Shown in pieces: positions 11,410-57,446 of a DNA stretch of 64,000 nt. The stretch's first letter is position 1. The number at the start of each line of letters is the position of its first letter. The translations under genes and the position numbers were made by a program. The DNA is from an uncultured Microthrixaceae bacterium (GTDB lineage Bacteria > Actinomycetota > Acidimicrobiia > Acidimicrobiales > Acidimicrobilacustridaceae), in contig CAWEJD010000003.1 of assembly GCA_963809335.1 (NCBI GenBank), forward strand, positions 1,592-65,591, written 5' to 3'. The notes under the pieces were generated by a model, which worked only from the letters and a program-made list of their open reading frames with translations, was not told the origin of the DNA and ran no database searches.

Positions 11410-11443
11410 GCCCTTCGGCACCGAATCGGCGCCGATTCGGTGC
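11410..11443. repeat. palindromic repeat copy, right arm truncated
   Basis: GCCCTTCGGCACCGAATCGGCGCCGATTCGGTGC, followed directly by AGGTTGACAGAAC. Confidence 0.85.
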
Positions 11444-11500
11444 AGGTTGACAGAACGCGCGGTCCGCCCCGAGAGCGCCGGTCAGGTTGACAGAACATCG

Positions 11501-26871: not shown

Positions 26872-26913
26872 GCCCCTCGGCGCCGATTCGGTACCGAATC
26901 GGCGCTGAAGGGC
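26872..26913. repeat. palindromic repeat copy
   Basis: GCCCCTCGGCGCCGATTCGGTACCGAATCGGCGCTGAAGGGC, 17 nt after the ilvD stop. The inner 9-mers are in the flipped arrangement. Confidence 0.9.
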
Positions 26914-27152: not shown

Positions 27153-27189
27153 CCGCATCCGCAGAACCGCACCCCGTGAGGAACCCACG

Positions 27190-29467: not shown

Positions 29468-30613
<1,146 letters not shown>

Positions 30614-32032: not shown

Positions 32033-32069
32033 CGAGCTGGCCGGTGCAGGCCACCACCGCTGAGGATCC

Positions 32070-32731: not shown

Positions 32732-32895
32732 GGATGCAGCTCCCTCGTGGTGCGAGTGCTGGAGGGCGCCGTCGTGGCTGCCGAGCGTCGGGTCAAGTCT
32801 GCTCGGGGGGTGTGACAGTGAAGGCCCACGGTCCGGTCGATTCGATCGGTCGAAGGCCGGCTGCCTGAGGGGCTCCAACCACTGACGATGTTGCT

Positions 32896-32937
32896 GCCCT
32901 TCAGCACCGAATCGGTACCGAATCGGCGCTGAAGGGC
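32896..32937. repeat. palindromic repeat copy
   Basis: GCCCTTCAGCACCGAATCGGTACCGAATCGGCGCTGAAGGGC. The 10-bp outer arms are perfect and the inner 9-mers are direct. Confidence 0.9.
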
Positions 32938-32990
32938 GACCGGAAACGTGGGTGGACGGTCGGTTGAGGGACGGCCCGACGATCCAGCCG

Positions 32991-34727: not shown

Positions 34728-34734
34728 GCTCGGG

Positions 34735-36451: not shown

Positions 36452-36579
36452 GCTTCCCCCTGTAGACCAACTCGTCTGGACCAGCTCGTCGAGCCGCCCA
36501 TCTGGTGTGGCCCAGGGGCAGTCTGCCCGATGGAGCCGGCCGACCGCTCCGCCTGGAGCAGCCGTTGTCCGGAGGGCGA

Positions 36580-37715
<1,136 letters not shown>

Positions 37716-37760
37716 CGCTGCAACTATCGCGGCCGAGCCCACTCGTGACGAAATCGGTTC

Positions 37761-37800
37761 CCCTTCGGCACCGAATCGGTATCGATTCGGTGCCGAAGGG
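37761..37800. repeat. palindromic repeat copy in the serC/aspC divergent region
   Basis: CCCTTCGGCACCGAATCGGTATCGATTCGGTGCCGAAGGG. Confidence 0.92.
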
Positions 37801-37866
37801 CTCCGCCACGCCGGTGGCGGGGCGCTAGCGTCGGCTCGCCACCCCCGACCCCGGAGCATCCACCGC

Positions 37867-39077: not shown

Positions 39078-39089
39078 GCCGGGGCCACC

Positions 39090-41179
39090 GTGACCAACGA
39101 CGCCCCGTACGGCTCCTGGCCGTCGCCGATCACCGCCGACGCTGGTGGTCGCCGGCGCCGTCGGACTCGGCGACTGTCGCGTGGGCGACGACGACGTCTG
39201 GTGGTCCGAGTCCCGACCCGAGCAGGCCGGCCGGATCGCCGTGGTGCGCCACCGTCCCGGCGGGGGGACGGTCGAGGCTTTCGGCGAGGACTTCTCGGCC
39301 CGCACCCGGGTGCACGAGTACGGCGGCGGCGCGTGGTGGCTGCACGACGACACGCTCTTCTTCACCAACGCCGCCGACCAGCGCCTCTACCGGGTCGATC
39401 CCGACGCCGAGCCCGGGATCGTTCGCCGATCCCGTCGCCCTGACGCCGGAACCGGCCGTGCCGATGGCCGACCGCTACGCCGACGGCGTGCTCACCGTCG
39501 ACGGCCGCTGGGTGATCTGCGTCCGCGAGCGCCACGACGGGCCCGACGTGCGCAACGAGCTGGTGGCCATCGAGGCCCAGCGCGGCGGCGAGCCGGTCGT
39601 CGTCGTCTCCGGGCCCGACTTCGTCGCCGCCCCCGGGTGAGCCCCGACGGGCGCCGGCTGTGCTGGCTGCAGTGGAACCACCCCGACATGCCGTGGGACG
39701 GCACCGAGCTGTGGGTCGCCGAGCTCGACGACGCCGACGTCCTCGAGGTCACCGACGCCCGCCGGATCGCCGGCAGTCGCACCGAATCGATCACCCAGCC
39801 CGAGTGGCACCCCGACGGCAGCCTCTGGTTCGTGTCCGATCGCACCGACTGGTGGAACCTGTACCGAATCGGTGCCGATTCGTTGCCGAAGGGCGCGGCC
39901 CGCACGGTCGCGCGGCCGCACCGCGGGCCCGGACGTGGCCGCCCCGACCCGGCGCCCGAGCCCACCCGGATCGGTACGATCCAGGGCGACATCGGCGTCC
40001 CGGCCTGGGTGTTCGCCCAGAGCCGCTACGCCTTCCTCCCCGACGGCCGCGTGGCTGTCGCCTACACCGCCGACGGCGTCGACCACCTCGCGGTGATCGA
40101 CGACCCGGCGCGACCCGCCGACGACCCGGGCGCGACCCGTCCGACCCGGCCTCACCGGCGGTCGTCGATGTCCCCACGCCGTTCACCACGCTCTCGTCGT
40201 TGCGGGCCTACGGCCACGGCCTCGCCATGATCGCCGGCTCGCCGACCTCCGAGCCCGTCGTCGCCCTCGCCGACCTGCCCCCGCACGGCCACGCCACCAT
40301 CGCCGCGGTGCAACCGGCCCGCGACCTCGGCCTCGACCCGGCCTGGTTCTCCGTCCCCGAGCCGCTCGACGTGCCCACCACCGGCGGAGCCGTCACCCAC
40401 GCCCTCTACTACCCGCCGACGCATCCCGAGGCCCACGGCCCGAGCGACGCCGCGCCGCCGCTGCGTCGTGATGATCCACGGCGGTCCCACGTCGGCCGCC
40501 CGGCCGCAGCTCAGCCTCGCCCTGCAGTTCTGGACCTCCCGGGGCTTCGCCGTCGCCGACGTGAACTACCGGGGCAGCTCCGGCTACGGCCGGGCCTACC
40601 GCGGGCCTGCTCGACGGGCAGTGGGGCATCGCCGACGTCGACGACTGCGTCGCCGTCGCCGAGCACCTGGTGGCCGAGGGTCGGGTCGACCCCGACCGAC
40701 TGGCGATCCGCGGCGGCAGCGCCGGTGGCTTCACCGCCCTGTGCGCCCTCACCTTCCACGATCGGTTCGCGGCCGGCGCCAGCCTGTACGGCGTCGCCGA
40801 CCTCGAGGCCCTGGCCCGCGACACCCACAAGTTCGAGGCGCGCTACCTCGACTCACTCGTCGGGCCCTACCCGGCCGAGCGCGACCGCTACGTCGAGCGG
40901 TCACCCATCCACCACGTCGACCAACTCGACCGCCCGGTCATCGTGCTCCAGGGGCTCGAGGACGAGGTCGTCCCGCCCGCCCAGTCCGAGATGATCGTCG
41001 ATGCCCTCCGGGCCAAGGGCGTGCCGGTCGCCTACCTCGCCTTCGAGGGAGAGCAGCACGGGTTCCGCCAGGCCGCCAACATCCGGCGTGCGCTCGAGGC
41101 CGAGCTGTACTTCTACAGTCGGGTTTTCGGCTTCGAACCCTGGGATCCGATCGACCCGGTGCCGATAGACAACCTCTGA
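39090..41179 (+). CDS. S9 prolyl-oligopeptidase-family serine peptidase (beta-propeller + alpha/beta hydrolase); frameshifted as sequenced
   Basis: N-terminal YGSWPSPIT, propeller repeats, nucleophile motif GGSAGGF, and C-terminal FEGEQHGFR. At least five frame switches. Contains a repeat copy at 39861-39894. Confidence 0.85.
39861..39894. repeat. palindromic repeat copy inside the S9 peptidase CDS (5' arm degenerate)
   Basis: GTACCGAATCGGTGCCGATTCGTTGCCGAAGGGC, translated in frame as [11 protein letters not shown]. Confidence 0.8.
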
Positions 41180-41194
41180 GGTGAGGAGGTACCC

Positions 41195-41524
41195 ATGGAA
41201 CCGGCCGGCATGACGATCATCGAGCACTACGGGACGCCCGAGGCGGCCCAGGCCCAGGCCTCCCTCCTGGTCGAGCGCGGGGTCGGCGCCACCGTCGAGC
41301 CCGAGACCGCAACCGGAGCCTTCTCGCTCGCCGTGCTCGACGATGACGCCGAACGGGCCCGCGAGCTGCTCGGCCTCACCCAGACCGAGCGTCAGGAGCT
41401 CTCGGAGGTCGACCTCATCAAGGCCAACCGCCCGTGGCTCGTTCCCGTGCTGCTGGTCGCGGTCGCCCTGTTCGTCATCCCGGTCCTGGCCTTCCTGATC
41501 GCCTTCAAGCTCTCGGGCGGCTGA
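41195..41524 (+). CDS. hypothetical small membrane protein
   Basis: Intact 109-aa ORF with a soluble N-terminal domain and a C-terminal TM helix (WLVPVLLVAVALFVIPVLAFLIAF). Confidence 0.5.
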   Translation: MEPAGMTIIEHYGTPEAAQAQASLLVERGVGATVEPETATGAFSLAVLDDDAERARELLGLTQTERQELSEVDLIKANRPWLVPVLLVAVALFVIPVLAFLIAFKLSGG

Positions 41525-41593
41525 TCCGCGACGGGGACGGCTCGTGGGCTCATCGGGTTGGCGGGCGGGACGGCCGAGCGGTCAGGATGAGGC

Positions 41594-43163
41594 ATGGCCC
41601 GCATCCTTGTCACCGAACCGATCGCCGAGGGCGGACTCGATCGGCTCCGCGCCGCCGGACATGACGTCGACGTCCAGATCGGGTCGTCCCCGGAGGAGCT
41701 GCTCGACCTGGTGAAGGGGGCCCAGGCGCTCATCATCCGCTCCGCCACCACCGTCACCGACGAGGTCCTGGCCGCCGGAACCGACCTGGTCGTGGTGGGA
41801 CGGGCCGGCATCGGGCTCGACAACGTCGACGTGCCCACCGCCACCGCCCGCGGCGTCATGGTCGTCAACGCGCCGCAGTCGAACATCCTGTCGGCGGCCG
41901 AGCACACCATGGCGCTGCTGCTCGCCCAGGCCCGCAACATCCCCCAGGCCCACGCCGCCCTCGTGGCCGGTCGGTGGGAGCGGTCCCGCTGGACCGGCGT
42001 CGAGCTCAGCGACAAGACCCTCGGCATCATCGGGCTCGGCCGCATCGGCAAGCTGGTGGCCCAGCGGGCCCTGGCCTTCGGCATGCGTCTCGTCGCCTAC
42101 GACCCGTTCGTGTCAGCCGACCGGGCCCGCCAGATGAGCGTCGAGCTGGTCGACCTCGACACCCTCATGGCGGTGTCGGACTTCGTCTCGATCCACGTGG
42201 TCAAGACCCCCGAGACCATCGGGCTGATCAACGCCGAGCTGCTGGCCAAGGCCAAGCCGGGCATCCGCATCATCAACGTCGGGCGCGGCGGCATCATCGA
42301 CGAGCCGGCCCTGGCCGAGGCCATCCGCTCGGGTCACGTCGGCGGCGCCGCCATCGACGTGTTCACCAAGGAGCCGACGACCGAGTCGCCCCTGTTCGAG
42401 CTCGAGTCGGTCGTGGTCACCCCGCACCTCGGTGCCAGCACCCACGAGGCCCAGGACAAGGCCGGCGACACCATCGCCGAGCAGGTCGGCCTGGCGCTGG
42501 CCGGGGACTTCGTACCGTTCGCGGTGAACGTGGCCGCGGGCGAGGCGTCCGAGACGGTGCGGCCGTTCCTGCCGCTGGCCGAGCGACTCGGCGAGCTCTT
42601 CGCCTCGCTGGCCCTCGACGGCAGCGCCGCCCTCGACATCGAGTACCAGGGCCAGATCGCCGGCTACGACACCCGCATCCTCACCCTCTCGCTGCTCAAG
42701 GGCTACTTCGGGCGCATCAGCGACGAGCCGGTCTCCTACGTGAACGCCCCGAAGCTCGCGGCCGAGAGCGGCATGCAGATCCGCGAGACGGCCACGACCA
42801 CCGCCCAGGACTACGTCAACCTCGTCACCATCCGCGGCGGCGACCACGCCCTGGCCGGCACCCTCGTCGGGCCTGCGGGGCGAGGCCCGCATCGTCATGG
42901 TCGACGACCACACGGTCGACCTGCCCCCCGCCCGCCACATGGTCGTGGTCCGCAACGACGACCGCCCCGGCATGATCGGCGCCGTCGGCCAGTTGCTCGG
43001 CGAGGCCGGCATCAACATCGCCGACATGGACGTCGGCCAGTCCGCCGCCGGCGTGTCGGCGCTGATGGTCCTGGCCACCTCGCAGTCGGTGCCACCCGAG
43101 GTCGTCGACCGGCTCGCGGCCACCGACGGCATCGTGTCGGTGCACGCGGTCGAGCTCAGCTGA
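41594..43163 (+). CDS. serA: D-3-phosphoglycerate dehydrogenase (with ASB/ACT C-terminal domains); one frameshift as sequenced
   Basis: NAD-binding motif GIIGLGRIGKLVAQRA, catalytic region, and ACT domain VVVRNDDRPGMIGAVGQLLGEAGINI. Frame switch near 42870. Confidence 0.92.
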
Positions 43164-43336
43164 CCGCTCCGGCCCGTTCCAACCCGCTCCGGCCCGCGCC
43201 TCATCGGCCGAACGGCTCATTGATGTAGGTCGTCCGGCCCGTTTCCCCGGCCGTGGCTCAGTCGACGAACGCCGAACGCCGACGCTGCTAGCAGCACGTC
43301 GTCCCTGGTGGGGGGCCTGCGAGAGGAGCATCGTCG

Positions 43337-45329
43337 GTGGCTCTGGATCCGATCCAGATCGATGAAGTGCCCGTCCCCCTTCTCGAGGTCCGGGATGGGG
43401 TCGTGCGGCGCGCCTCGGCGATGGCCGACGGCCATGCTCGTCCCGGCCTCCGAGGACGGGGTGGACGGCCGCCCGGCGGTCGCCGTGGGGCAGCGCCTCG
43501 TCGATCTGGTCGCGGAGCCCGACCGTCCGGCGCTCGAGGAGGTGCTCGTCCCGGGCCCGGCCCGGCGTTCCGGTGACGAGCTCGATCGGTCACCCGCGAT
43601 CTCGCCGTGCGCCTGATCGGTCCGCCGAGCCGGCCGGTCACGCTCTCGATCACCGACACCGACGACGCCCAGCTCGTGGGCCTCCGCGACCAGTCGACCG
43701 AGCGCCGGCTGGCCGCGGTGATCGATGCCGTCGCCGACTCGACCCTGCTGCTCGACGCCGACGGCCGGCTGCTGTGGCAGTCCGACGCGTTGGCCGCCCG
43801 CGTGCCGGGCGGCCGGGCCAATCTCGGCACCCACCCGGTCGAGCGCCTCCATCCCGAGGACCTCCCGCTGGTGCTCGAGAACTTCGCCGAGCTGGCCCGC
43901 CGCCCCACCGGTCGGGTCAGCCAGGTCGTGCGTTCGCGGGCCGTCGACGACGACGACGTGTGGCAGCTGATCGAGCTCATCGGTGCGGGCCGGCCCGATC
44001 ATCCGGACCTCGGTGGCGTGGTGGTGCAGGTGCGCAACCTCGACGAGGGCGCGGAGCTCGAGTCGGTGGCCCACACCGACGGGCCGCTCATGTCGCTGGC
44101 CGAGGCCGCCCCGATCGGCATCCTGTTGATGAACCACGCCGAGGTGGTGGTCTACGCCAATCGCGCCAGCCGGGACCTGCTGGGCCTCCTGGAGACCGAC
44201 GACGCCACTCGCTGGCGTGAGCGCGTGGCCCCGTCGCACCGCGGCCTGATCGACGCCATGATCACCGCCGGCCTGGCCGCCGCCGATCCGGTCACGACCA
44301 CCGCGCCGTTCACCCGACCCGAGGGCTCGGCCCATTGGCTCCGCGTCCGCGTCGCTCCCCATCTCGGGGCCAGCGGCCAGGTGCGTCGGCGTGATCGCCG
44401 CCCTCGAGGACGTCACCGCCGAGGTCGAGGCCCGCGGCCGAGTCCGAGCGGCTGCTGCAGATGCTCGACGCCACGTCGGACTTCGTGGCCGTCTTCAAGC
44501 CGACCGGCGAGATCCTCCACACCAACGTCGCGCTCGCAACAGGTGCTCGAGCGGCTCGAGCGCGAGGGCGGCTCCGGACGCCTCGTCGACCTCCTCGGCG
44601 AGGCCAGCCGGGACCGGTTCCTCGCCGGAGCGGTGGGGGAGTTGGAGGGACGGGACCACTGGGAGGGCGAGATGGAGATCCAGGTGGGCGGGGGGCGCAC
44701 GATCCCCGTGTCGGCCCTGGGGTGGTCCGTCGTGACGAGGAGGGCGCGCTCGACTGGATCGCCATGGTCGCCCGGGACATCTCCGCGCAGAAGGACGCCC
44801 AGGAGGTCCTGCGCCGCATGGCCACCATCGACCACCTCACCGGTCTGGCCAACCGGGCGCTGTTCACCGAGCAGCTGGACGAGGCGGCCGAGGCGAGCCA
44901 GCGGTCGGGCCGGCCGCTGGCCCTGCTGTTCTGCGACCTCGATCGGTTCAAGGAGGTCAACGACCGCCACGGCCACGCGGTCGGCGACGCCGTGCTGCGA
45001 ACCATCGCCGACCGCCTGCAGGAGATCACGCGCGGAGGGCGACCTGGCGGCGCGGGTCGGCGGCGACGAGTTCGTGATCCTGTGCCAGGGCGTCACCGAC
45101 TCCGAGGTGCTGGCCGCGCTGGCCGAGCGCATCATCGACTCGATCGACCAGCCCATCGAGGCCGGCGACGCCGTGGTCAAGGTCGGCATCTCGATCGGGA
45201 TCGCGGTGGCCGGACGGGCAAGCGATGTCGACGGCGATCGCCTGCTGATCGTGAGCCGACCAGGCCATGTACCGGGCCAAGGCCACCGGCGGCAACCGCT
45301 ACCGCATCCTGGCCGACGGGCCCCGGTAG
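43337..45329 (+). CDS. multi-PAS diguanylate cyclase (GGDEF); frameshifted as sequenced
   Basis: PAS-like segments precede a GGDEF domain ([35 protein letters not shown]). Start is GTG 43337 after GAGAGGAG. At least six frame switches. Stop TAG at 45327-45329. Confidence 0.78.
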
Positions 45330-45376
45330 GCGCCTCGACGGCGGGTCGGCTCGGGCCAGCTGGTCAGGCCGGGCGG

Positions 45377-45974
45377 TCAGGCCTGGGCGCTGGGCTTCCA
45401 GGCCGGGCGACGGCCTCGTAGTCGGCGATGGCCTCGGTCGTGGGCCAGGGTGATGCCGATGTCGTCGAGGCCCTGCAGGAAGCGCTCGCGGGTCGCGTCG
45501 TCGAGGGGGAAGCGCGACCTCGAGCCCGATGGCCGGCGCGGCCAGGGTGCGGGCGCGACGTCGATGGTGATCTCGAGGGCGGGGTCGGCCTCGACCGCGC
45601 GCAGGAGCTGCGCGCCGACCTCGGGCGTCGACCTGCACCGGGACCAGCCCGTTCTTGGTGCAGTTGTTGCGGAAGATGTCGGCGAACCGGGGCGAGATCA
45701 CCGCCTGGAAGCCGTAGTCCATGATCGCCCACACGGCGTGCTCACGCGACGAGCCGGTGCCGAAGTTCGGCCCGGCCACGAGGATGTTGGCCCCGGTGTA
45801 GTGCTCGTGGTTGAGCACGAAGTCGCGGTCGTCGCGCCACTCGGAGAAGAGCCCGGCGCCGAACCCGGTGCGCTCGACCCGCTTGAGCCAGTCGCTGGGG
45901 ATGATCTGGTCGGTGTCGACGTCGGAGCGGTCGAGCGGCACGGCGGTGCCGGTGACGACGATGACGGGTTCCAT
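45377..45974 (-). CDS. leuD: 3-isopropylmalate dehydratase small subunit; frameshifted as sequenced
   Basis: Motifs [12 protein letters not shown] and [16 protein letters not shown]. About three frame switches in the 3' half. The likely stop is at 45377-45379 (tail ...[10 protein letters not shown]). Confidence 0.88.
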
Positions 45975-46001
45975 GGGGGATGTCCTCTCTTCGGGCCGGG
46001 T

Positions 46002-47400
46002 TCAGGCCAGGTCGGCGGGAGCGGCGAAGGTGCCGGCGATGGCGGTGGCGGCGGCGACGGCCGGCGACACCAGGTGGGTGCGCCCGCCGCGGCCCTGGCG
46101 GCCCTCGAAGTTGCGGTTGCTGGTGGACGCGGCCCGCTCGCCGACCGACAGCTTGTCGGGGTTCATGGCCAGGCACATCGAGCAGCCCGGCTCGCGCCAG
46201 TCGAAGCCGGCGGCGGTGAAGATCCGGTCGAGGCCCTCCTGCCTCGGCCTGGGCCTTCACCCGGAACGACCCGGGCACGACCATGGCCCGCATGCCCGCG
46301 CTGACCTGCCGGCCCTCGGCCACCGCGGCCGCGGCGCGCAGGTCCTCGATGCGGCCGTTGGTGCACGAGCCGATGAACACCGTGTCGACCGGGACGTCGC
46401 GCAGCGGGGTGCCGGCGGTCAGGCCCATGTACTCGAGCGCCCGGGCGGCCGACTCGCGGGCGCTGGGGTCGTCGAACGAATCCGGGTCGGGCACGGCTCC
46501 GCTGAGCTCGATCACCTGGGCCGGGTTGGTGCCCCACGACACGAACGGCTCGAGGGTCGAGGCGTCGAGCACGACCTCCTTGTCGAACGTCGCGCCGTCG
46601 TCGGTGGCGAGCCGGCGCCAGGCCTCGACGGCCCGGTCCCACGCGTCGCCGGTGGGGGCGTGGCGGCGGCCCTTCAGGTAGTCGAAGGTGACGTCGTCGG
46701 GGGCGATCAGCCCGGCCTTGGCCCCGGCCTCGATCGACATGTTGCAGACGGTCATGCGGCCCTCCATCGACAGCGCCCGGATGGCCGAGCCGCGGTACTC
46801 GATGATCGAGCCGATGCCGCCGCCGGTGCCGATGGTGCCGATGATGGCGAGGATCAGGTCCTTGGCCGTCACGCCGGCCGGCAGCTCGCCCTCGACGGTG
46901 ATGGCCATGGTGCCGGGCCGGCTCTGGGGCAGCGTCTGGGTGGCGAGGACGTGCTCGACCTCGCTGGTGCCGATGCCGAAGGCCAGCGCGCCGAACGCGC
47001 CGTGGGTGGAGGTGTGGCTGTCGCCGCAGACGATGGTCATGCCCGGCTGGGTCAGGCCCTGCTCGGGGCCGATGATGTGGACGATGCCCTGGTCGGGGTT
47101 GCCCATCGGGTACTCGGTGATGCCGAACTCGGCGCAGTTGGCCCGCAGGACCTCGACCTGCTTGCGCGAGATCGGGTCGGCGATGGGCTGGTCGATGTCG
47201 GCGGTGGGGACGTTGTGGTCCTCGGTGGCGACGGTGAGGTCGGGCCGGCGGACCGTGCGGCCGGCGAGGCGGAGCCCGTCGAAGGCCTGCGGCGAGGTGA
47301 CCTCGTGGACGAGGTGGAGGTCGATGTAGAGCAGGTCGGGCTCGCCCTCGGCTGCCCGGACGAGGTGGTCGTCCCAGATCTTCTCGCTGAGCGTCTTCAC
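46002..47400 (-). CDS. leuC: 3-isopropylmalate dehydratase large subunit; one frameshift as sequenced
   Basis: Start is GTG 47400 after GAAGGGA. Motifs [34 protein letters not shown], and C-terminal NRNFEGRQG in a second frame. Frame switch near 46250. Confidence 0.92.
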
Positions 47401-47450
47401 GAGGGTCCCTTCTGCCGGTTCTCGGCCCGGATGCTTGCTATCTCACTATT

Positions 47451-47466
47451 CAAGATTCTAATCTTG
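47451..47466. promoter_or_regulatory. candidate LtbR operator overlapping the divergent leuC and ltbR -10 boxes
   Basis: CAAGATT-CT-AATCTTG has perfect 7-bp arms in an unusually AT-rich 70-bp intergenic region. It contains TAGAAT (minus strand, leuC side) and TAATCT (plus strand, 6 nt before the ltbR ATG). Confidence 0.55.
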
Positions 47467-47470
47467 CCGT

Positions 47471-48173
47471 ATGGGATCGAGTGTAAGCGGGGTCGGGGTC
47501 GTCGACAAGGCGATGGCCATCCTCGGAGCGGTCGAGCGGTCACCGAGGTCGCTCGGGGAGCTGGTGGAGGCGACCGGCTACTCGCGGGCGACCGCGCACC
47601 GGCTGGCGGTGGCACTCGAGGTGCACGGGCTGGTGCGGCGCGACGAGGACGGACGCTTCACGCTGGGGGTGCGCCTCATCGCGCTCGGTCGGGCCGCCGC
47701 GGAGGGGATCCCGCTGGCCGAGGCGGCGCTGCCGGCGCTGACCGCGCCTGCGCGACGAAACCGGCGAATCGGTGCAGCTGTACGTGCGAGAGGGGGATCG
47801 GCGGGTCTGCATCGCCGCCCTCGAGTCGCCGCACGGCCTGCGGACGATCGTGCCGATGGGGGCGTCGTTGCCCCTCGACGTCGGCTCGGCCGGCGCCATC
47901 CTCTCGGTGCCCTTCAGCACCGAATCGGTACCGAATCGGCGCCGATGGGCCGAGAGCGTGGGGGAGCGGGAGGCGGGGGTGGCCTCGGTGAGCGCCGGCG
48001 TGCTCGACCCCGACGGCACCGCGGTCGCCGCCGTCAGCGTCTCGGGGCCGATCGAGCGCACGACCCGCCAGCCCGGTGCCCGCTACGGCGACGCCGTCGT
48101 CGCCGCCGCCCGCAGCATCGAGCAGGCCGCCGGTCTGGCCGACGGCGGCCCGGCCGCCGCACCGCCGTCGTGA
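47471..48173 (+). CDS. ltbR: IclR-family regulator, LtbR-like by position (divergent from leuCD); one frameshift and an in-frame repeat copy
   Basis: N-terminal wHTH (VDKAMAILGAVERSPRSLGELVEATGYSRATAHRLAVALE) and effector domain ESVGEREAGVASVSAGV. Frame switch near 47755. The repeat lies at 47909-47950. Confidence 0.78.
47909..47950. repeat. palindromic repeat copy inside the ltbR CDS (14 codons, in frame)
   Basis: GCCCTTCAGCACCGAATCGGTACCGAATCGGCGCCGATGGGC, translated as PFSTESVPNRRRW. Confidence 0.88.
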
Positions 48174-48203
48174 CGGAGACGCCCTAGGCTCCCTGACGCA
48201 TGG

Positions 48204-49831
48204 ATGAGAGCCTGGCCCATGGGTGAGAACCTGGCGGCCGTCGACATCGGCACCAACTCCATCCACCTGGTCGTGGCCCGCTTCGACGACGACGGCCACT
48301 TCGAGGTGATCGCCGACGAGAAGGAGGCCGTCCGCCTCGGCTCGAGCGGCGGCGACATGAAGGAGCTGGCCCCTGACGCCATCGACCGGGGCATCGCCGC
48401 GCTGACCCGGTTCCGCCAGGTCGCCGACATCTCCTCGGCCCCGATGAGCGCGGTCGCCACCAGCGCCGTGCGCGAGGCCGAGAACGCCGAGGAGTTCATC
48501 CGCCGGGCCCGCGACGAGGCCGACGTCGACGTCGAGGTCATCTCGGGGGTCGAGGAGGCCCGGCTCATCCACCTCGGCGTCCTGCAGGCCGTCCCCGTGT
48601 TCGAACGTCGCCTGCTGCTGATCGACATCGGCGGCGGCAGCACCGAGGTCCTGCTCGGGCTGAAGGGGCGAGACCCTCGCGGTCCGCAGCTTCAAGCTCG
48701 GTGCCATCCGCCTGTCCCGGCGGTTCTTCAAGACCGACCGCCTGCATCCGGGCGCGGTCGACGCCTGCCGCCGGTTCGTGCGGTCGATGCTCGCCCCGAT
48801 GGCCCGCGACGTCGAGCGGCTCGGCTTCGAGGTGGCCGTCGGCAGCTCCGGCACCATCGAGTCGGTGGTGGCCATGGCCCACGCCCAGCGCCGGCACGAG
48901 CCCACCCCCCGCTCGCTCACCAACGCCACCGTCACCCGCAAGGAGGTCGAGGCGGTCGTCAAGCGGCTGGCCGGGGCGGCCACCGTCGGCAAGCGTCGCG
49001 AGCTCCCCGGGCTCGAGCCGGACCGGGCCGACATCATCCTCGGCGGCGCCATCATCCTCGAGCAGGCCATGGCCCTGTTCCGGATCGACGAGCTGGTCGT
49101 GTCCGACTACGCGCTGCGCGAGGGCGCCCTGCTCGACGCGTTCCAGCGACGGCACGGCGCGGCCCTGCACCACCTGCACGACCTGCGTCGGCGCAGCGTC
49201 GTCCGCCTGGCCGAGATGATGGACGAGGAGCCCGAGCACTCGGCCCACGTGGCCGTGCTCGCCCTCGAGCTGTTCGACGGCACCGAGCGCTACCACCGCC
49301 TCGGCGACGACGCCCGCGAGCTGCTGGAGGCGGCCGCCCTGCTGGCCAACGTGGGCCTGTTCGTCTCGCACAGCAAGCACCACAAGCACACCTACTACGT
49401 GATCCGGAACTCCGATCACCTCTCGGGCTTCACCGACCACGAGATCGAGATGGTGGCCCTCGTCGCCCGCTACCACCGCAAGAGCGCGCCCTCGGCCAAG
49501 CACGCCGAGTTCGCCGCGCTCCGGCCGTCCGACCAGGACACCGTCCGGGCCCTCGCCGGCATCCTGCGGGTGGCCATCGGGCTCGACCGGACCCACGCCG
49601 GGCTGGTCACCGCGGTGCGCTGCTCCCGGCGAGGGCAAGGCGCTCGTCATCGAGGCCGAGTCACGCCCCGGCGCCGACCTGGGCCTCGAGCTCTACACCG
49701 CCAACGAGCGCAAGGCCCTGCTCGAGGAGGTCATCGGCCGACCGGTGCGGATCGAGGCCCTCGATCCCGCCGTCGATCCCGCCGGCGCCCCTGCCGAGCC
49801 GCCGTCCGAGCAGCTCGATCAGCCGGCCTGA
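48204..49831 (+). CDS. ppx: exopolyphosphatase / guanosine pentaphosphate phosphohydrolase family; frameshifted as sequenced
   Basis: Motifs AAVDIGTNSIHLVVA and DIGGGSTE, with an HD-type C-terminal region (HSKHHKHTYYVIRNS). Frame switches near 48665 and 49625. Confidence 0.85.
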
Positions 49832-50700
49832 CGCCCTCGTTCCCGTCCCCTCGCCACGACCGAGTCGCAGGCCTCGAGCAGGGCGGGGAGGAACACCTCG
49901 GGATCGGTGCCGCACACGCCGTGGTCGCCGGGCACCGGGTGCACCGTCGCCCCCGTGACCTCGGCGAGCCGTCGCTGGCGATGGGGTGGCACGACGGAGT
50001 CGTACTCGGTCACGACCACCGCCACCGGGAGGTCGACGCCGCCGATCCACTCGTGCGACGAGAAGCCGGCCAGGGCCTGGCCCGCCTCCACCACCATCCG
50101 GGTGTCGTTCTGGATCACCTGCTGGCGGGCCCACCGACCGAACTCGGACCGGTCGAAGCGCGCGTCGAGCAACCGGCTGCCGACGGAGCGCTGCACCCGA
50201 CGGGGGGTGGCCCGGACGATGAGCGACGCCATGCCCGCCATCGACGCCATGGCCCGTCCGCCTCGGCCGCTCGTGCCGAAGTTCCGGCTGGTCGCGCACA
50301 GGACCAGGCCGTCGACCCGCTCGGGGTGCCGCCGCCACACGAGCTGGGCGATCGGCCCGCCCATCGAGTAGCCGACGGGGATGATCCGGTCGATCCCCAG
50401 CTCGTCGGCCAGGGCCACGACGTCGTCGGCGCAGTCCTCGAGTCGGAACCGTCGCCAGGTGCGGATGCCCCGACCGTGGCCCCGGTGGTCGAGGGCCACC
50501 ACGTTGACGTGACGGGCCAGCGGCTCGAAGGCGGCGAACCAGTTGAGCGCGGCGTTGACCGTCCAGCCGTGGAGCAGCACGACCGTCGGCGCCCCGGGCG
50601 GCCCGTCGATCCCGCGAACGAACGTCGTGCCCCGGCCCGGCAGCTCGACCGGGCGACCGGGCGGCAGGCCGGTGGGGTCGGGCACCACATCGCCGCTCAC
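49819..50700 (-). CDS. alpha/beta hydrolase
   Basis: Motifs VVLLHGW, DHRGHGRG and nucleophile elbow GYSMGG. The likely start is GTG 50700, because the longer ORF start would overlap greA. The 3' end overlaps ppx by 13 nt. Confidence 0.75.
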   Translation of the reverse strand: MSGDVVPDPTGLPPGRPVELPGRGTTFVRGIDGPPGAPTVVLLHGWTVNAALNWFAAFEPLARHVNVVALDHRGHGRGIRTWRRFRLEDCADDVVALADELGIDRIIPVGYSMGGPIAQLVWRRHPERVDGLVLCATSRNFGTSGRGGRAMASMAGMASLIVRATPRRVQRSVGSRLLDARFDRSEFGRWARQQVIQNDTRMVVEAGQALAGFSSHEWIGGVDLPVAVVVTEYDSVVPPHRQRRLAEVTGATVHPVPGDHGVCGTDPEVFLPALLEACDSVVARGRERGRQAG

Positions 50701-50713
50701 GACCCGTGCTCCG

Positions 50714-51181
50714 TCAGGCCTCGATGTCGATGATCTCGACCTTGAGCACGCCGCCCGGTGCCTCGAAGTCGACCACGTCACCGATGGCCCGGCCGAGCAG
50801 GGCGGACCCCAGCGGCGAGCCCGGGGACACCACGTCGAGCTCGTCGTGGCGCTCCTCGATCGAGCCGATGAGGAAGGTCTCGGGTTCGTCGTCGCCCTCG
50901 TAGGTGATGGTGACGATCGAGCCCGTCTGCACGTGGTCGCTCTCGGTCACGTCGACGATCTCGCAGTCGAGCAGCACGGCGGCCAGGTGGTTGATCCGGG
51001 CCTCCATCTTGCCCTGCTCCTCCTTGGCGGCGTGGTAGTCGCCGTTCTCCTTGAGGTCGCCGAGCTCGCGGGCCGCCTGGATCTTGCGGGCGATGTCGGT
51101 ACGGCCGTGCGACACGAGGTTGTCGTGCTCGGCCCTCAGCCGGTCGTACGCCGTTTGGGAGAGGTGATGGATGTCAGCCAC
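50714..51181 (-). CDS. greA: transcription elongation factor GreA
   Basis: Intact 155-aa ORF containing ARELGDLKENGDYHAAKEEQG. Confidence 0.93.
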   Translation of the reverse strand: MADIHHLSQTAYDRLRAEHDNLVSHGRTDIARKIQAARELGDLKENGDYHAAKEEQGKMEARINHLAAVLLDCEIVDVTESDHVQTGSIVTITYEGDDEPETFLIGSIEERHDELDVVSPGSPLGSALLGRAIGDVVDFEAPGGVLKVEIIDIEA

Positions 51182-51208
51182 GGCGCCATGGTAGCGAGCA
51201 CCCGTCGA

Positions 51209-52168
51209 TCACCCTGCGGCGGCGGTGACCTCGATGGCGATCTTCTGGTCCGGCCGCTCGTCGATCGGCCCCTGCAGCAGGCGGAACAGGATGTCGCCCG
51301 AGGCCTCGAGGCTCGAGGCCGCCGGCAGGATCTGGGTGAGGTCGGTCTGCTGGGTGCCGGACCCGTCGATGTGGAAGGCCAGCAGCTCGGCGGTGACCCC
51401 GGCGGGCAGCCCGGCGAAGGGCACCGGTCCCAGGGGGGCGGTCTGGGCGTACTTCAGCTCCAGGTCGATCTTGTTGGTGGTCAGGTGGGTCAGCGACACG
51501 GAGTAGGTGGCCGAGGAGTTGAGCCCGTCGAAGTCGAGCGACACCGGAACCTTCCAGACCGCTCCCTCGCCGACCGGCTCGGTCGGGAAGCTGAGGATCA
51601 GCTGCTGGAGGCTGTTGCTCAGCCGGGCGAGCCACAGCGTGGCGACGGCGTCGAGCCCCGGCGGCGGGTCGGCGTGGAACGATGTCACCGTCCCCGTCGG
51701 TCGCATGGCGAGCGACCCGGTGACGCCGACGAGCGACCGGAACGAGGCCTGGGCCTGGGCCGCCACGGCCGCGGTCGTCGCGCTCGTGTCGATCGTGATC
51801 GATGCGAACCGGAACGTGCCCCGGATCGTGCCGTCGGGATCGACGGCGTCGACGGTGGTGGTGACCTCGGCGGTGATCGGCGGCACCGCGACCGGACCGC
51901 TCCCCGCGTAGCTCGACGCGTAGCTGGTGTGCTCGACGTAGGACACCTTGGTCTGGAAGCTGGCGCCCACCGCCGGGTGGAACCGCAGCTGCCGGCGGGG
52001 CTCCGAGCCGTTGTAGACGTCGGTGGCCGACGACGGCACGGTGTCGAGCGGCAGCGTGTCGGCCGTGGTCGAAGTCGAGGTCGGCGCCGACGAGGCGTGC
52101 GTGCGGCCTGAGCTGCACGCCACCAGCGCGGCGCAGAGGGCCAGCGCCACGACCACACCCAGGACCAT
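51209..52168 (-). CDS. putative lipoprotein (hypothetical)
   Basis: Intact ORF. Signal peptide with lipobox MVLGVVVALALCAALVAC, followed by an S/T-rich linker. An alternative GTG start lies at 52186. Confidence 0.6.
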   Translation of the reverse strand: MVLGVVVALALCAALVACSSGRTHASSAPTSTSTTADTLPLDTVPSSATDVYNGSEPRRQLRFHPAVGASFQTKVSYVEHTSYASSYAGSGPVAVPPITAEVTTTVDAVDPDGTIRGTFRFASITIDTSATTAAVAAQAQASFRSLVGVTGSLAMRPTGTVTSFHADPPPGLDAVATLWLARLSNSLQQLILSFPTEPVGEGAVWKVPVSLDFDGLNSSATYSVSLTHLTTNKIDLELKYAQTAPLGPVPFAGLPAGVTAELLAFHIDGSGTQQTDLTQILPAASSLEASGDILFRLLQGPIDERPDQKIAIEVTAAAG

Positions 52169-52248
52169 CCGCCGTCGTCGCGCCACGGACGGGATCCTAG
52201 ATGCCTGCCAGGTTGACGAACGCAGACCGCGCCAGCACACTGTGCGGA

Positions 52249-52290
52249 GTGTTCGACACCTCACCTGCCGACATCATCATCATCGACTAG
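52249..52290 (+). CDS. putative leader peptide VFDTSPADIIIID (13 codons, four consecutive Ile codons)
   Basis: GTG TTC GAC ACC TCA CCT GCC GAC ATC ATC ATC ATC GAC TAG. The stop abuts a 10-bp hairpin (52289-52315) and a terminator, about 70 nt upstream of leuB. Confidence 0.55.
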   Translation: MFDTSPADIIIID

Positions 52291-52320
52291 CGCGCACCAC
52301 GTGGTGGTGTGCGCTCCTGA

Positions 52321-52350
52321 CCGTCCACTCCGGTGGGCGGTTTTCTCGTT
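52321..52350 (+). terminator. intrinsic terminator of the leuB-ilvE-cimA attenuator
   Basis: CCGTCCAC-TCCG-GTGGGCGG forms an 8-bp stem with one G-U pair, followed by TTTTCTCGTT. It ends 3 nt before the leuB RBS GGGAG. Confidence 0.6.
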
Positions 52351-52359
52351 CTAGGGAGC

Positions 52360-53370
52360 ATGTCCGTGCCTGACCAGTCCAACAGCTCGCAGCCCCACCG
52401 CGTCGGGGTCATCGGCGGCGACGGCATCGGCCCCGAGGTCATCGCCGAGGCCCTGAAGGTCGTCGCCGCGGCCGGGGTCGAGCTCGACACCGTCGACTAC
52501 GACCTCGGCGGCGCCCGCTACCTGCGCGACGGCGTGGTGCTCACCGATGAGATCGTCGAGGAGTGGCGGGGTCTCGACGCGCTGCTGGTCGGGGCCGTCG
52601 GCACCCCCGACGTGCCCCCGGGGCTGATCGAGCGGGGTCTGCTGCTGAAGATGCGCTTCGACCTCGACCTCTACATCAACCAGCGCCCCTTCGTGGCCCC
52701 CGACGGGAGCCACGACTTCATCGTGATCCGCGAGAACACCGAGGGCACCTACGCGGGCGAGGGCGGGTTCCTGCGCAAGGGCACGCCCCACGAGGTCGCC
52801 ACGCAGGGATCGGTCAACACCCGCATGGGCGTCGAGCGCTGCGTCCGCTACGCCTTCGAACTGGCCCGCAGCCGCCCCCGCCGCCACCTCACGCTGGTGC
52901 ACAAGACCAACGTGCTCACCTTCGCCGGCGACCTGTGGGAGCGGACCTTCGACGAGGTCGCGGCCGAGTTCCCCGACGTCTCCACCGGCTACAACCACGT
53001 CGACGCCGCCTGCATCTACTTCGTGCAGTCGCCCGGTCAGTACGACGTCATCGTCACCGACAACCTGTTCGGCGACATCCTCACCGACCTCGGCGGGGCC
53101 GTCTCCGGCGGCATCGGCCTGGCGTCGTCGGGCAACCTCAACCCGGCCCGCACGGGCCCGTCGATGTTCGAGCCGGTGCACGGCTCGGCCCCCGACATCG
53201 CCGGCCAGCAGAAGGCCAACCCGGTCGCCGCCATCCTGTCGGCCACCATGATGCTCGAGTACCTGGGCGAGGCCGATGCCGCCGCCCGCATCCGCAAGGC
53301 GTGCGCCGACACCTCGTCGCTCGTCGGCTCCACGTCCGAGGTCGGCGACCTCGTCGTCAACCGTCTCTGA
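52360..53370 (+). CDS. leuB: 3-isopropylmalate dehydrogenase
   Basis: Intact ORF with [13 protein letters not shown] and [12 protein letters not shown]. Start is ATG 52360 or GTG 52366; the latter is better spaced from GGGAG. Confidence 0.93.
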
Positions 53371-53382
53371 GGGGATCATCCC

Positions 53383-54300
53383 ATGGCCATCACACCCACC
53401 GACAAGATCTGGATGAACGGCGAGCTCGTCGACTGGGACGCGGCCCAGATCCACATCCTCACCCACACCCTGCACTACGGCATGGGCGTGTTCGAGGGGG
53501 TGCGGGCCTACGAGACCGAGGACGGGCCGGCGGTGTTCCGCCTCACCGAGCACATCGAGCGGCTGTTCAACTCGGCCCGCATCATGATGATGGACATCCC
53601 CTACACGGTCGACGAGCTGGTCGCCGCCACCCGGGAGGTGGTGCGGGCGTCCGGGCTGCCGTCGTGCTACATCCGGCCGATCGCCTACTACGGCTACGGC
53701 GAGATGGGCCTGAACACCATCCCGTGCTCGGTCGACGTGGCCATCGCCTGCTGGCCGTGGGGGGCGTACCTGGGCGACGATGCGCTGTCCAAGGGCGTGC
53801 GCATGAAGATCTCGTCGTGGGTGCGCCACGACCACAACACCATGCCGCCGGCGTCGAAGACCACCGGCAACTACGTCAACTCGTCGCTGGCCAAGGTCGA
53901 GGCCCTCAAGGCCGGCTACGACGAGGCCATCATGCTCAGCCCGCAGGGGTTCGTGAGCGAGTGCACCGGCGAGAACATCTTCGCGGCGCGCGACGGCGTG
54001 CTGATCACCCCGCCGATCGCGGCCGGCGCCCTCGAGGGCATCACCCAGGACTCGGTCATGACCATCGCCCGTGACCTCGGCTTCGAGACCCGCTTCGACT
54101 ACCTCACCCGCAGCGACCTCTACGTCTGCGAGGAGATGTTCGTGTGCGGCACCGCGGCCGAGGTCAGCGCGGTGAACTCGGTCGACGACCGCCCGATCTA
54201 CTGCCCCGGGCCCATGACCGCGGCCATCGCATCGGAGTACGGCAAGGCCGTGCGCGGCCAGGTCGACCGCTACAAGAACTGGCTCGACTATGTCGAGTGA
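53383..54300 (+). CDS. ilvE: branched-chain amino acid aminotransferase (class IV)
   Basis: Intact 305-aa ORF with [30 protein letters not shown] and [10 protein letters not shown]. Confidence 0.93.
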
Positions 54301-55899
54301 CGCCGGCGGTCCCGACCTCGGTCGAGATCTTCGACACGACGCTGCGCGACGGCGCGCAGTTCGAGGGCATCTCGCTCACGGTCGAGGACAAGCTCCGCGT
54401 CGCCGAGCAGCTCGACTGGCTCGGCGTCCGCTGGATCGAGGGCGGCTATCCGCAGGCCAACCCGAAGGACGCCGAGTTCTTCACCCGGGCCCCGAAGGAG
54501 CTGAAGCTGTCGACCGCCGAGCTGCTGGCGTTCGGCTCGACCCGGCGCCCGGCCGGCAAGGTCGACGTCGACCCCACCCTCGAGGCGTTGGTGCGAGGCC
54601 GAGACCTCGACGGTGTGCATCGTGGGCAAGAGCTGGGACTTCCACGTCACCGAGGCGCTGCAGACCACCCTCGACGAGGGCGTGGCCATGGTGGGCGAGT
54701 CGGTGCAGTTCCTGAAGGACGCAGGCCGTCGGGTGTTCTTCGACGCCGAGCACTTCTTCGACGGCTACAAGGCCAACCCCGAGTACGCCCTGCGGGTGCT
54801 CGAGGCCGCCGCGGCCAACGGGGCCGACTGCGTGGTGCTGTGCGACACCAACGGCGGATCGCTGCCTCACGAGGTGCAGCGGATCACGAGCGAGGTCACC
54901 GCCTACCTCGGGTCGGTGCCGGTCGGCATCCACACCCAGAACGACTCCGGCTGCGCGGTCGCCAACTCGATCGCCGCCGTGCTCGGCGGCGCCAGCCAGG
55001 TGCAGGGCACGATCAACGGCTACGGCGAGCGCACCGGCAACGCCAACCTGATGACGGTCATCCCCGACCTCACCCTCAAGCTCGGCATCGCCACCCTGCC
55101 GGAGGGTCGGCTCGAGCGGCTGACCGCGGTCAGCCGCCACGTCGCCGAGCTGGTGAACCTGCCGCCCCACCCCGCCGATCCGTTCGTCGGCACCTCCGCG
55201 TTCGCCCACAAGGGCGGCCTGCACACCTCGGCACTCGGACGGGCGGGCGGCGCCACCTACGAGCACATCGACCCGACCGCGGTCGGCAACCACACCCGGG
55301 TGCTGGTGTCCGATCTCGGTGGCCGGGCCGGCATGTCGATGAAGGCCCGCGAGCTGGGCGTCGACCTCGACGACCGGGCCGCCGGGGTGCTGAGCGAGGA
55401 GCTGAAGCAGCTCGAGTCGCGGGGCTGGCTGTTCGAGGCGGCCGACGCGTCGCTCGAGCTGCTGATGCGCCGGGCCGCCGGGTGGGAGCACGACTTCTTC
55501 GACGTCGAGGCCTATCGGGTGACCTCCTATCACCGCGAGGGGCCGGTCATGCCCGTCGACGAGGTCGAGGTCACCGTCGAGGCCACCGTGAAGCTGTGGA
55601 TCGACGGCCAGCGCATCGCCGCGGTGGGGGAGGGCAACGGCCCCATCAACGCCCTCGACGTGGCCGTGCGGGCCGCGCTGAACGGGCGCTACCCGGCGCT
55701 CGAGCGCATCCACCTCACCGACTTCAAGGTGCGGGTGCTCGACGGGGGTGCGGCCACCGGCGCCGTGGTGCGGGTGCTCATCGACTCGACCAACGGCGAC
55801 GACGTGTGGACCACCGTCGGGGTCGACACCAACGTGATCGAGGCCGCCTGGCGGGCGCTGATCGACTCGTTCGTCTACGGCCTGCTGCACACCTCGTAG
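54297..55899 (+). CDS. cimA: citramalate synthase (LeuA/CimA family, short form with LeuA-dimer domain); one frameshift as sequenced
   Basis: The GTG start overlaps the ilvE stop (GTGA). Motifs [11 protein letters not shown] and [13 protein letters not shown], with a C-terminal regulatory domain. About 530 aa, distinct from the long LeuA at the window start. Frame switch near 54605. Confidence 0.82.
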
Positions 55900-55910
55900 G
55901 CTGGGTGGCG

Positions 55911-57400: not shown

Positions 57401-57446
57401 CTGCCCTTCGGCACCGAATCGGCGCCGATTCGGTGCCAAAGGGCAG
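57401..57446. repeat. palindromic repeat copy (extended arms)
   Basis: CTGCCCTTCGGCACCGAATCGGCGCCGATTCGGTGCCAAAGGGCAG, between the convergent hydrolase and L,D-transpeptidase genes. Confidence 0.92.

Follow-up and report, generated by a model that had tools for sequence, protein, structure and literature searches.

In this study we analyzed a 64,000-nt stretch of contig CAWEJD010000003.1 (assembly GCA_963809335.1) from an uncultured Acidimicrobiales bacterium, hereafter the window, for a 42-bp palindromic repeat, one copy of which lies in frame within the effector domain of an IclR-type regulator gene transcribed divergently from leuC and leuD. All coordinates refer to the forward strand of the window. 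Together the results make it very probable that positions 47909-47950 hold an old in-frame copy of a lineage-specific hairpin repeat resembling REP sequences (repetitive extragenic palindromes). A preliminary description had proposed that a palindromic repeat is embedded in frame in this regulator, and the membership in the repeat family, the domains of the protein and the reading frame were all borne out.

The in-gene copy (GCCCTTCAGCACCGAATCGGTACCGAATCGGCGCCGATGGGC) lies within open reading frame (ORF) 47772-48173 on the forward strand and is translated as (V)PFSTESVPNRRRW(A), preceded by ...LPLDVGSAGAILSV (...GSAGAILSV) and followed by AESVGEREAGVASVSAGV. Its first base is the third of a Val codon and its last base the second of an Ala codon, and because the copy is 42 nt long the reading frame is preserved. 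Fifteen of its 19 arm pairs are complementary and the GTAC centre is self-complementary; as RNA the segment has a minimum free energy of -22.9 kcal/mol (z = -2.9 against shuffled sequences). The 3' bases of the copy (..TGGGC) form the codon of Trp159 and the beginning of the next codon. Since Trp159 (TGG) is invariant in all aligned genes, the right end of the copy (..GATGGGC) overlaps native codons. This overlap with the last bases of the copy had been overlooked, and the count of exactly 14 added codons given earlier must be revised: element-less relatives carry 3-8 codons at the site, which puts the net gain by the element at about 6-11 codons. After repair of a frameshift by dropping one C, the regulator is a protein of 233 aa that matches HTH_IclR (PF09339, E 4.9e-14) and IclR_C (PF01614, E 1.2e-20), has PDB profile matches to 2o0y and 1mkm, and is 93-94% identical to P0001, which bears the NCBI name IclR family transcriptional regulator and comes from an Acidimicrobiales metagenome-assembled genome (MAG).

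About ten copies of the palindrome are present in the window (Table 1). The family consensus is a perfect palindrome, GCCCTTCGGCACCGAATCGGTACCGATTCGGTGCCGAAGGGC, readable as four 11-bp units, and the repeat is built of 11-bp CCGAWTCGGNN units flanked by the outer arms GCCCTTCGG/CCGAAGGGC. Repeat finding on the window returned families of eight to nine copies. Four matches to the in-gene 42-mer were found with at most three mismatches where none was expected from 100 shuffles, the 20-nt core matched 21 times against 0.01 expected, and the 9-mer CCGAWTCGG occurred 19 times against 0.78 expected. The coding-frame signal falls at seven to eight of the copies, which are thus mostly extragenic; by context, two copies lie between convergent genes, three to four between tandem genes, one between divergent genes and two within genes. 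As RNA, the intergenic copies fold with minimum free energies of -32 to -42 kcal/mol. Some intergenic copies are also conserved in position. The copy at 37760 corresponds to L207:413 and, in degenerate form, to L084:368, and the copy at 57403 corresponds to L084:19950 and L207:18931 in the spacer between the hydrolase and YkuD genes. A copy at L081:12404, after the leuA cluster, occupies a position that resembles that of 57403.

Two simpler identities for the repeat were considered and rejected. The first was that the copies are ordinary terminators; in a scan for intrinsic terminators and promoters over 26000-45900, no copy scored as a T-tract terminator. The second was that the repeat is the regulator's own operator or a signal of a branched-chain amino-acid regulon, which we rejected as unsupported because copies are also found next to unrelated genes (amidohydrolase, alpha-L-fucosidase, YkuD, aminotransferase and Peptidase_S9) and because the leuC-IclR intergenic region has a different, AT-rich stretch. 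Judged by its sequence, that stretch (47437-47468) is likely a candidate for the regulator's operator or promoter. Its counterpart in L030 (9960-9996) is a palindrome, CAGGACTGGACTCTCACTATATGAGATTCTAGTCTTG. A search of the whole window with Rfam at gathering thresholds gave no match at any repeat copy, and the consensus gave no match by BLAST against PLSDB plasmids. The sole Rfam match in the window was a tRNA gene at 60949-61020.

We compared the site among related genomes, using 6-20 kb of DNA per locus. A genome scan for orthologues listed 80 Acidimicrobiales loci (L001-L080), mostly distant at 57-80% identity, and close orthologues of the regulator were retrieved individually. The same palindrome occupies the same site in at least nine further assemblies of Acidimicrobiales. 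The loci with it are L081/L082, L083 (decayed), L084, L085, L086, L207, L208, L002, L209-211 and L212; it is absent from L030 (remnant only), L004, L010, L011, L017, L036 and most of the listed L001-L080. The element-less loop, as seen in most of the 80 loci listed, is a short, unrelated one such as GSAGRVL-SGERSRTG-WIQSVGERE. The loop of the window's relatives contains [PV]-x-G-x-E-S-V-P-N-R-R-[RP]-W, and this motif or a close variant (ESAPIRRQ, ESTSNRR, ESISNRR, DSVPNRR) occurs in 34 of 115 homologues. The codons common to the element-bearing genes are GAA TCG GTA CCG AAT CGG CGC CGA TGG. Both the residues and the DNA palindrome are shared by orthologues down to about 72-75% protein identity, which does not fit a local, private indel; the comparison of sequences indicates that the element is neither recent nor private to the window genome. 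The preliminary description had also asked whether distant orthologues that lack the repeat family carry the same residues. So far, the orthologues that carry the residues also carry the palindrome.

The stretch between the conserved motifs had been described as usually longer in IclR proteins, and the element had accordingly been suspected of replacing native sequence. The first part stands with respect to the solved proteins 2o0y and 1mkm, in which the stretch from the GSAG helix to the G-[WY]-A strand is longer by about 22-28 residues. The second part does not, since orthologues are 215-240 aa long throughout the family, with or without the element. The shortening is thus common to both groups, and a replacement of native sequence by the element is not supported.

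The individual in-gene sites read GCCGCTCGGCGCCGAATCGGTACCGAATCGGCGCCGATGGGC in L081, ACCCTTCGGCGCCGAATCGGTGCCGATTCGGCGCCGATGGGC in L084, GCTCGTGGGCACAGAATCGGTACCGAATCGGCGCCCATGGGC in L086, CCCGGTCGGCACCGAATCGGTACCGAATCGGCGCCGATGGGC in L207, GCCGCCGGGCGTCGAATCGACATCGAATCGACGCCCAGGCGC in L208 and GCCCTTAGGCGCCGAATCGGCGCCGATTCGGCGCCAATGGGC in L209, and intergenic family copies are also present in L081, L084, L086 and L207, four loci whose flanking DNA was long enough to show them. Decayed versions were found as well, namely APDPGRW in P0013, AGAGSGPAARGW in P0022, and GGA TCG GAG GCC GAT CGG CCC GAT TGG in P0032/L030. In L083 (10412-10522) the left arm of the in-gene element is split by an extra 21 nt (ASPSGKD) and the core carries a G to T change (CGT); this copy is a case of element decay with the reading frame kept.

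At the nucleotide level the in-gene copies stand apart from the rest of the gene. Synonymous sites were tested only in columns with an invariant amino acid and a degenerate codon. Pairwise codon identity was 0.94-1.0 in the element core compared with 0.53-0.62 for the remainder of the gene (permutation p = 0.0004-0.0025), and the core value was unmatched by any contiguous run elsewhere in the gene. Third-position G+C was 0.55 in the core and 0.91 in the rest of the gene, and an A/T-ending codon was conserved in all sequences in 3 of 7 core columns (GAA, GTA and AAT) as against 1 of 140 columns elsewhere. The L209 copy additionally contains the rare codons TTA and CAA. When the ten in-gene copies were placed on a 19-pair hairpin, 81% of the cells were paired, compared with 22-46% when the partners were slid, and none of 500 shuffles reached the covariation score. 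Nine of the ten copies have minimum free energies of -23 to -36 kcal/mol; the tenth, from the divergent L212, has a weak fold (-17 kcal/mol) other than this hairpin. In a comparison of RNA with DNA structure, the counts of G-U and A-C mismatches were roughly balanced. Taken together, the frozen synonymous sites, the rare A/T-ending codons and the retained hairpin potential indicate that a DNA or RNA palindrome is maintained, and not the peptide alone.

Several of the amino-acid changes among orthologues, read from the sequences, appear to be by-products of keeping or restoring palindromic symmetry or of switching between family subtypes. Pair 10-39 is C-G in five sequences and G-C in three (L085, L086 and L208), a switch that replaces Leu by Val and Arg by Pro. 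The change of N to I in L084 and L209 results from AAT becoming the symmetric ATT, and that of V to A results from a GGTACC centre becoming GGCGCC, a variant also seen in the intergenic copies at 11410 and 57403. Similarly, VP to TS in L208 reflects the change of CCGAATCGG to TCGAATCGA in both units. Selection on the protein is also suggested, since Trp159 is invariant and Asn (AAT) is kept in eight of ten lineages. AAT rather than ATT (Ile) is found in 8 of 10 in-gene copies compared with 2 of the 7 full intergenic copies in the window, a preference that suggests a compromise with protein-level selection.

The Asn preference, together with the conservation of the peptide in 34 of 115 homologues, is what could be expected if P-x-G-x-E-S-V-P-N-R-R-R-W were simply a functional protein motif, its likeness to the repeat at the DNA level being historical or the family having been seeded from the gene. 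The intergenic copy at 32896 has in-gene-type asymmetry, so that the gene copy may have served as donor at least once. We find this explanation improbable, however, since selection on the protein cannot freeze synonymous sites or keep GAA, GTA, AAT, TTA and CAA in a gene with a third-position G+C of 0.91. Furthermore, the segment is modelled as disordered, many close orthologues have scrambled or lost the peptide, the amino-acid replacements track palindromic symmetry, and the shorter loop of element-less orthologues is the wider and probably ancestral state.

A structural model is consistent with insertion at a permissive site. In an AlphaFold2 model built from a 29-sequence alignment (mean predicted local distance difference test score, pLDDT, 82.9), residues 149-155 are the only internal stretch with pLDDT <50, and the element-encoded residues fall there. 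The segment is placed between a helix at 138-145 and a strand at 159-164 that starts at Trp159. In the alignment, too, this loop is rich in indels. The model fits the interpretation that the element-encoded residues form a tolerated, disordered surface loop. The preliminary description had called for such a prediction to see whether the segment maps to a loop, and this low-pLDDT loop, together with the shorter loop of the element-less orthologues, makes its analogy to the in-frame palindromic elements of Rickettsia an apt one.

A 1-nt frameshift located between 47743 and 47754, which had been overlooked, splits the regulator in the window. We surveyed frameshifts by tblastn of proteins from the closest contig, L081, against the window. 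Residues 1-91 of the L081 regulator align with 47471-47743 in frame 2 (95.6% identity) and residues 95-225 with 47754-48146 in frame 3 (94.7% identity). The regulator is not alone in this respect: 6 of 11 genes in 45380-56450 (leuD, leuC, iclR, ppx, leuA/cimA and a hypothetical gene) have 1-2 frameshifts relative to their intact L081 counterparts, each being spread over two to three frames with no in-frame stops, and the other five genes are unbroken. The major segments of leuC, iclR, ppx and leuA are 94-96% identical to L081; identity is lower in leuD, the hypothetical gene and the C-terminal tail of ppx. At the DNA level the window and L081 are 91% identical, with about 100 gaps, mostly of 1 nt, over 12 kb. 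The Peptidase_S9 gene and ilvB are apparently split too. As 6 of 11 neighboring genes are likewise frameshifted, and as frameshifts in essential leucine-biosynthesis genes amid well-conserved coding sequence point to indel errors in the assembly, the sequence data indicate that the organism most likely has an intact regulator and that the frameshift near 47745 is an assembly indel.

Two alternatives bear on this point. The first is that the regulator is a decaying pseudogene, with the element and the frameshift near 47745 as two of its lesions, and its coding sequence is indeed divided over two frames in the window. We regard this as highly improbable, given a single 1-nt indel, no stop codons, 94-96% amino-acid identity on either side, and 99 of 99 listed alignment-invariant residues of the family intact. 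Moreover, leuC, leuD, ppx, leuA and another nearby gene have like lesions, typical of assembly indel errors, and the element occurs in intact orthologues from independent assemblies. The second alternative is that misassembly over a repeat placed the 42 bp in the gene. Although the assembly is evidently error-prone for single-base indels, such an event is hardly conceivable here: the flanks are colinear with L081, the sole gap within the regulator coding sequence is at 47744, and the palindrome is found with the identical site and segment in independent NCBI MAG, ENA, Logan and GTDB contigs, an agreement among assemblies that rules misassembly out as the source of the segment.

How the element may have reached its present state can be outlined as follows. 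A full-length copy would have inserted, in an ancestor of a large Acidimicrobiales clade, into a naturally variable surface loop that has the GSAG helix on one side and the W-x-x-S-V-G-E-R-E strand on the other in an LtbR-type IclR regulator. Its right end would have fused with the native Trp codon through the shared TGGGC. According to the model and the alignment, the protein tolerated the element because its length is a multiple of three and because the loop, in the model, is disordered. The copy now encodes P-[FLV]-[GS]-x-E-S-V-P-N-R-R-R. It continues to behave as a member of the repeat family, unlike ordinary coding sequence, and its nucleotide sequence may have been maintained by selection on the DNA or RNA hairpin, by repeated short-patch gene conversion with family copies or, as we favor, by a mix of the two.

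Exchange between copies is suggested by two comparisons. The in-gene copy of the window matches its paralogue at 32896 at 40 of 42 positions, compared with 38 of 42 for the orthologous L081 copy, which suggests sequence exchange between 32896 and the in-gene copy, possibly with the latter as donor. The paralogue also shares the in-gene-type asymmetries (CAGC, direct GAATCGG..GAATCGG and GCAC..GCGC). Additionally, the L209 in-gene copy matches an intergenic metagenome copy in L143 at 41 of 42 positions, the lone difference being the T that forms the Trp codon. At the level of sequence, these matches suggest concerted evolution via short-patch conversion.

Several observations weigh against the interpretation of the segment as an old, maintained copy of the repeat. 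The compensatory evidence is thin, since two-sided changes affect only three pairs and five cells, and a single inherited event may account for the G-C state at pair 10-39. No other family copy was found in the 20 kb available for each of L083 and L085. A real frameshift in the organism may underlie the break in the window sequence, and to this extent the possibility of a decayed gene, raised in the preliminary description and rendered unlikely by the frameshift pattern of the neighboring genes, retains some force. Finally, a rough neighbor-joining (NJ) tree of 115 homologues (loop masked, about 200 columns, poorly resolved) scatters the motif-bearing orthologues over several clades among motif-less ones, so that a single ancient insertion needs many losses.

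The patchy distribution could instead reflect recurrent independent insertions, the loop before Trp159 acting as a hot spot where native ..TGGGC resembles the element end. Consistent with this, in-gene copies resemble different family subtypes in different genomes, and L030 and L053 have family copies immediately downstream of the gene. At the Peptidase_S9 site described below, the native sequence of the element-less L086 (TACCGCATCGG) matches the element (TACCGAATCGG) at 10 of 11 positions. We nevertheless judge recurrent insertion to be unlikely, because all copies share position and frame, with E-S-x-x-N-R-R before Trp, and because decayed remnants (P0013, P0022 and L030) are expected from loss and not from gain. 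The tree, moreover, is poorly resolved over its roughly 200 columns, and gene conversion explains the subtype matching equally well. The invariant position and reading frame lead us to favor one old insertion with repeated decay, and the decayed remnants fit repeated loss; from the sequences we infer a single ancient insertion followed by repeated decay. As a separate observation, the family copies at L030 10677-10712 and L053 4250, 4354 and 4416 stand immediately 3' of IclR genes whose loops have no clear element.

The regulator is not the only gene with an in-frame copy. The Peptidase_S9 copy at 39856-39897 is translated in an element frame other than that used in the IclR gene (RIGADS compared with ESVPNR); it has conserved counterparts in L083, L084, L207 and L119, and L085 and L086 have none. 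Arg stands in place of the conserved Tyr of the Peptidase_S9 WWNLYR motif in L084 and L119 (TAC to CGC), a change that makes the arms symmetric. We also scanned metagenomes with the 20-nt core (loci L087-L206). Since this pattern has only 16 fixed bases, the low-G+C matches may partly be due to chance. Among the listed high-G+C matches, sister subtypes have the same inner 28 nt and differing outer arms that are mutually complementary, for example GTTGGCAC..GTGCCAAC and TCTGCAC..GTGCAGA. Members of this superfamily share an inner GCRCCGAWTCGGNNCCGAWTCGGYGC (L094, L096, L126, L128, L169, L091, L148 and L176, for example). In L094 a sister subtype lies in frame within an amine-oxidase-family (protoporphyrinogen-oxidase-like) ORF and is translated as NSLAPNRHRIGANARG. 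Automatic detection of in-gene copies by third-position G+C missed known in-gene copies and was therefore unused for frequencies. Tandem arrays of the 11-bp unit were observed in L099, L121, L131, L141 and L200.

The features located in the window are collected in Table 1. The divergence of the regulator from leuC/leuD is conserved in all loci examined, and the gene order GGDEF - leuD - leuC <> IclR - ppx - hydrolase - greA - leuB - ilvE - leuA is largely kept in most related contigs. In the ilv region, positions 26980-27084 hold a probable ilvB leader-peptide attenuator. Its small ORF reads GTG AAC CCC ACT GTC TCG ATT CTC GTG GTA CTC ACC TAG (MNPTVSILVVLT*); after it, at 27051-27084, comes a hairpin that resembles a terminator and has a T-run. 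The acetolactate-synthase start lies further downstream, at 27190. Between this attenuator and the ilvB start codon, at 27105-27154, lie four direct CACCGAATCG units, 11 to 16 bp apart, which have in common the 9-mer of the palindromic repeat core. Translation of these units would echo the IclR loop peptide.

Table 1. Coordinates, strands and supporting remarks for the repeat copies, the host regulator and adjacent features in the window.
Feature	Position	Strand	Basis or remark
In-frame copy of the 42-bp palindrome, IclR effector domain	47909..47950	+	sequence, family, codon alignment, hairpin, model
Regulator N-terminal part (HTH domain), frame of ATG 47471	47471..47746	+	tblastn
1-nt frameshift site, sequence GACCGCGCCTGCGCGAC	47740..47756	+	one base more than in L081
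Regulator C-terminal part (IclR_C effector domain), carries the element	47754..48173	+	tblastn
AT-rich stretch, leuC-IclR intergenic region	47437..47468		putative promoter/operator
leuD and leuC, one frameshift each in the assembly	45380..47400	-	tblastn, synteny
Second in-frame copy, Peptidase_S9 gene	39856..39897	+	right half plus centre
Intergenic copy, degenerate right end	11410..11451		partial further copy at 11492-11533
Intergenic copy between convergent coding signals	20164..20205		fold -39.2 kcal/mol
Copy directly downstream of ilvD, upstream of the ilvB leader	26872..26913		
Copy upstream of ilvC, downstream of acetolactate-synthase genes	29473..29514		
Copy closest to the in-gene copy	32896..32937		40/42 identical, first 34 nt identical
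Copy in divergent intergenic region	37760..37801		
Copy between convergent hydrolase gene and YkuD gene	57403..57444		

The hairpin could be a functional cis-element of DNA or RNA, recognized by a conserved trans-acting factor, and not selfish DNA. This is a tentative reading that we hold to be possible but doubtful; its basis is that a CCGAWTCGG-NN-CCGAWTCGG core is common to the superfamily and that, among the listed matches, the outer stems differ by lineage and stay complementary. If it were true, purifying selection would act at the nucleic-acid level on the in-gene copies, which would be dual-coding segments, and maintenance of the structure would dictate amino-acid replacements in an IclR/LtbR regulator, a Peptidase_S9 protein and an amine-oxidase-family enzyme. 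Furthermore, the in-gene copy and the CACCGAATCG arrays by the ilvB leader could link these genes to a common post-transcriptional or nucleoid-level control.

More broadly, our results extend in-frame palindromic repeats, best known from Rickettsia and some Proteobacteria, to uncultured high-G+C Acidimicrobiales. It is unusual that the in-gene copy is still recognizable and foldable across orthologues whose other synonymous sites have largely diverged, and that some amino-acid changes in the regulator are apparently driven by palindrome symmetry rather than by protein function. The site therefore offers a tractable case for asking which of selection and gene conversion maintains REP-like hairpins and how protein loops arise from, and are reshaped by, elements of this kind. 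In practice, gene callers and pseudogene filters should not take in-frame repeat segments for errors.

The host gene itself resembles a known type of regulator. Corynebacterium LtbR is an IclR-type regulator divergent from leuCD, and the window regulator likewise combines HTH_IclR and IclR_C domains in about 230 aa and is divergent from leuC-leuD. By this analogy it is a putative LtbR-type regulator of leucine genes.

Among repeats that enter genes, the Rickettsia palindromic elements (RPEs) are a close parallel for the in-gene copy. They are in-frame insertions of roughly 100-150 bp in protein-coding genes, in families RPE-1 to RPE-10; Ogata and co-workers in 2000 and Claverie and Ogata in 2003, cited in PMC3733652, are said to have described such in-frame insertions, and Amiri and colleagues reportedly noted in 2002 that the elements deteriorate afterwards. 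Enterobacterial ERIC sequences and the Correia elements of Neisseria are other small repeats able to lie within ORFs. Similar to RPEs, the window palindrome stands in frame in conserved genes (IclR and Peptidase_S9), is retained in orthologues, is translated in different frames in these two genes and, according to the model, would encode a segment that lies outside the fold core, on the surface or in a loop. In contrast, it is set apart from RPEs by its size of 42 bp and its occurrence in another phylum, most copies of its family are intergenic, and the in-gene copy shows strong synonymous-site conservation with the hairpin maintained.

MITEs, or miniature inverted-repeat transposable elements, provide a second comparison, as the QMITEs of Coxiella are in-frame bacterial MITEs (PMC5896051; reviewed in PMC10969869). 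Like the window element, MITEs are small non-coding repeats that add peptide segments inside ORFs. The window element differs in being a single hairpin and not a sequence of 70-300 bp with terminal inverted repeats, and no target-site duplication or other flanking direct repeat was found in the flanks of eight family copies.

The family as a whole resembles the REPs and their paired forms, the REP doublets forming hairpins (REPINs; Bertels & Rainey 2011, PMC3116915). In-frame REP copies inside genes are documented for several Proteobacteria and Opitutus, and one end of a REP bears a conserved tetranucleotide tag, GTAG or CGTC (Di Nocera et al. 2013, PMC3733652); Actinobacteria go unmentioned in that account. 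The window repeat is likewise short, G+C-rich, hairpin-forming and multicopy (about ten copies in 64 kb), its copies lie for the most part between genes, frequently downstream of a gene or between convergent ones, and copies persist at orthologous positions in related genomes. In addition, the 42-mer is readable as two inverted 20-nt halves in the style of a minimal REPIN. Several features differ. The host is an uncultured member of the Acidimicrobiales; the palindrome is strand-symmetric and almost perfect, and a CCGAWTCGG unit recurs inside it with an 11-bp period; and the elements end in GCCC.../...GGGC, the flanks of eight copies containing neither a GTAG nor a CGTC tag. In an all-against-all BLASTP of ORFs within 2.5 kb of 27 listed metagenome copies, moreover, no recurrent family emerged, whether a REP-associated tyrosine transposase (RAYT), another transposase or any other neighbor gene. 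Our literature search found no description of such repeats in Acidimicrobiia. We conclude that the window family works like a REP or minimal REPIN but lacks the GTAG/CGTC tag, and that, while intragenic palindromic repeats are already known in the form of Rickettsia RPEs and intragenic REPs, this 42-bp family is previously undescribed.

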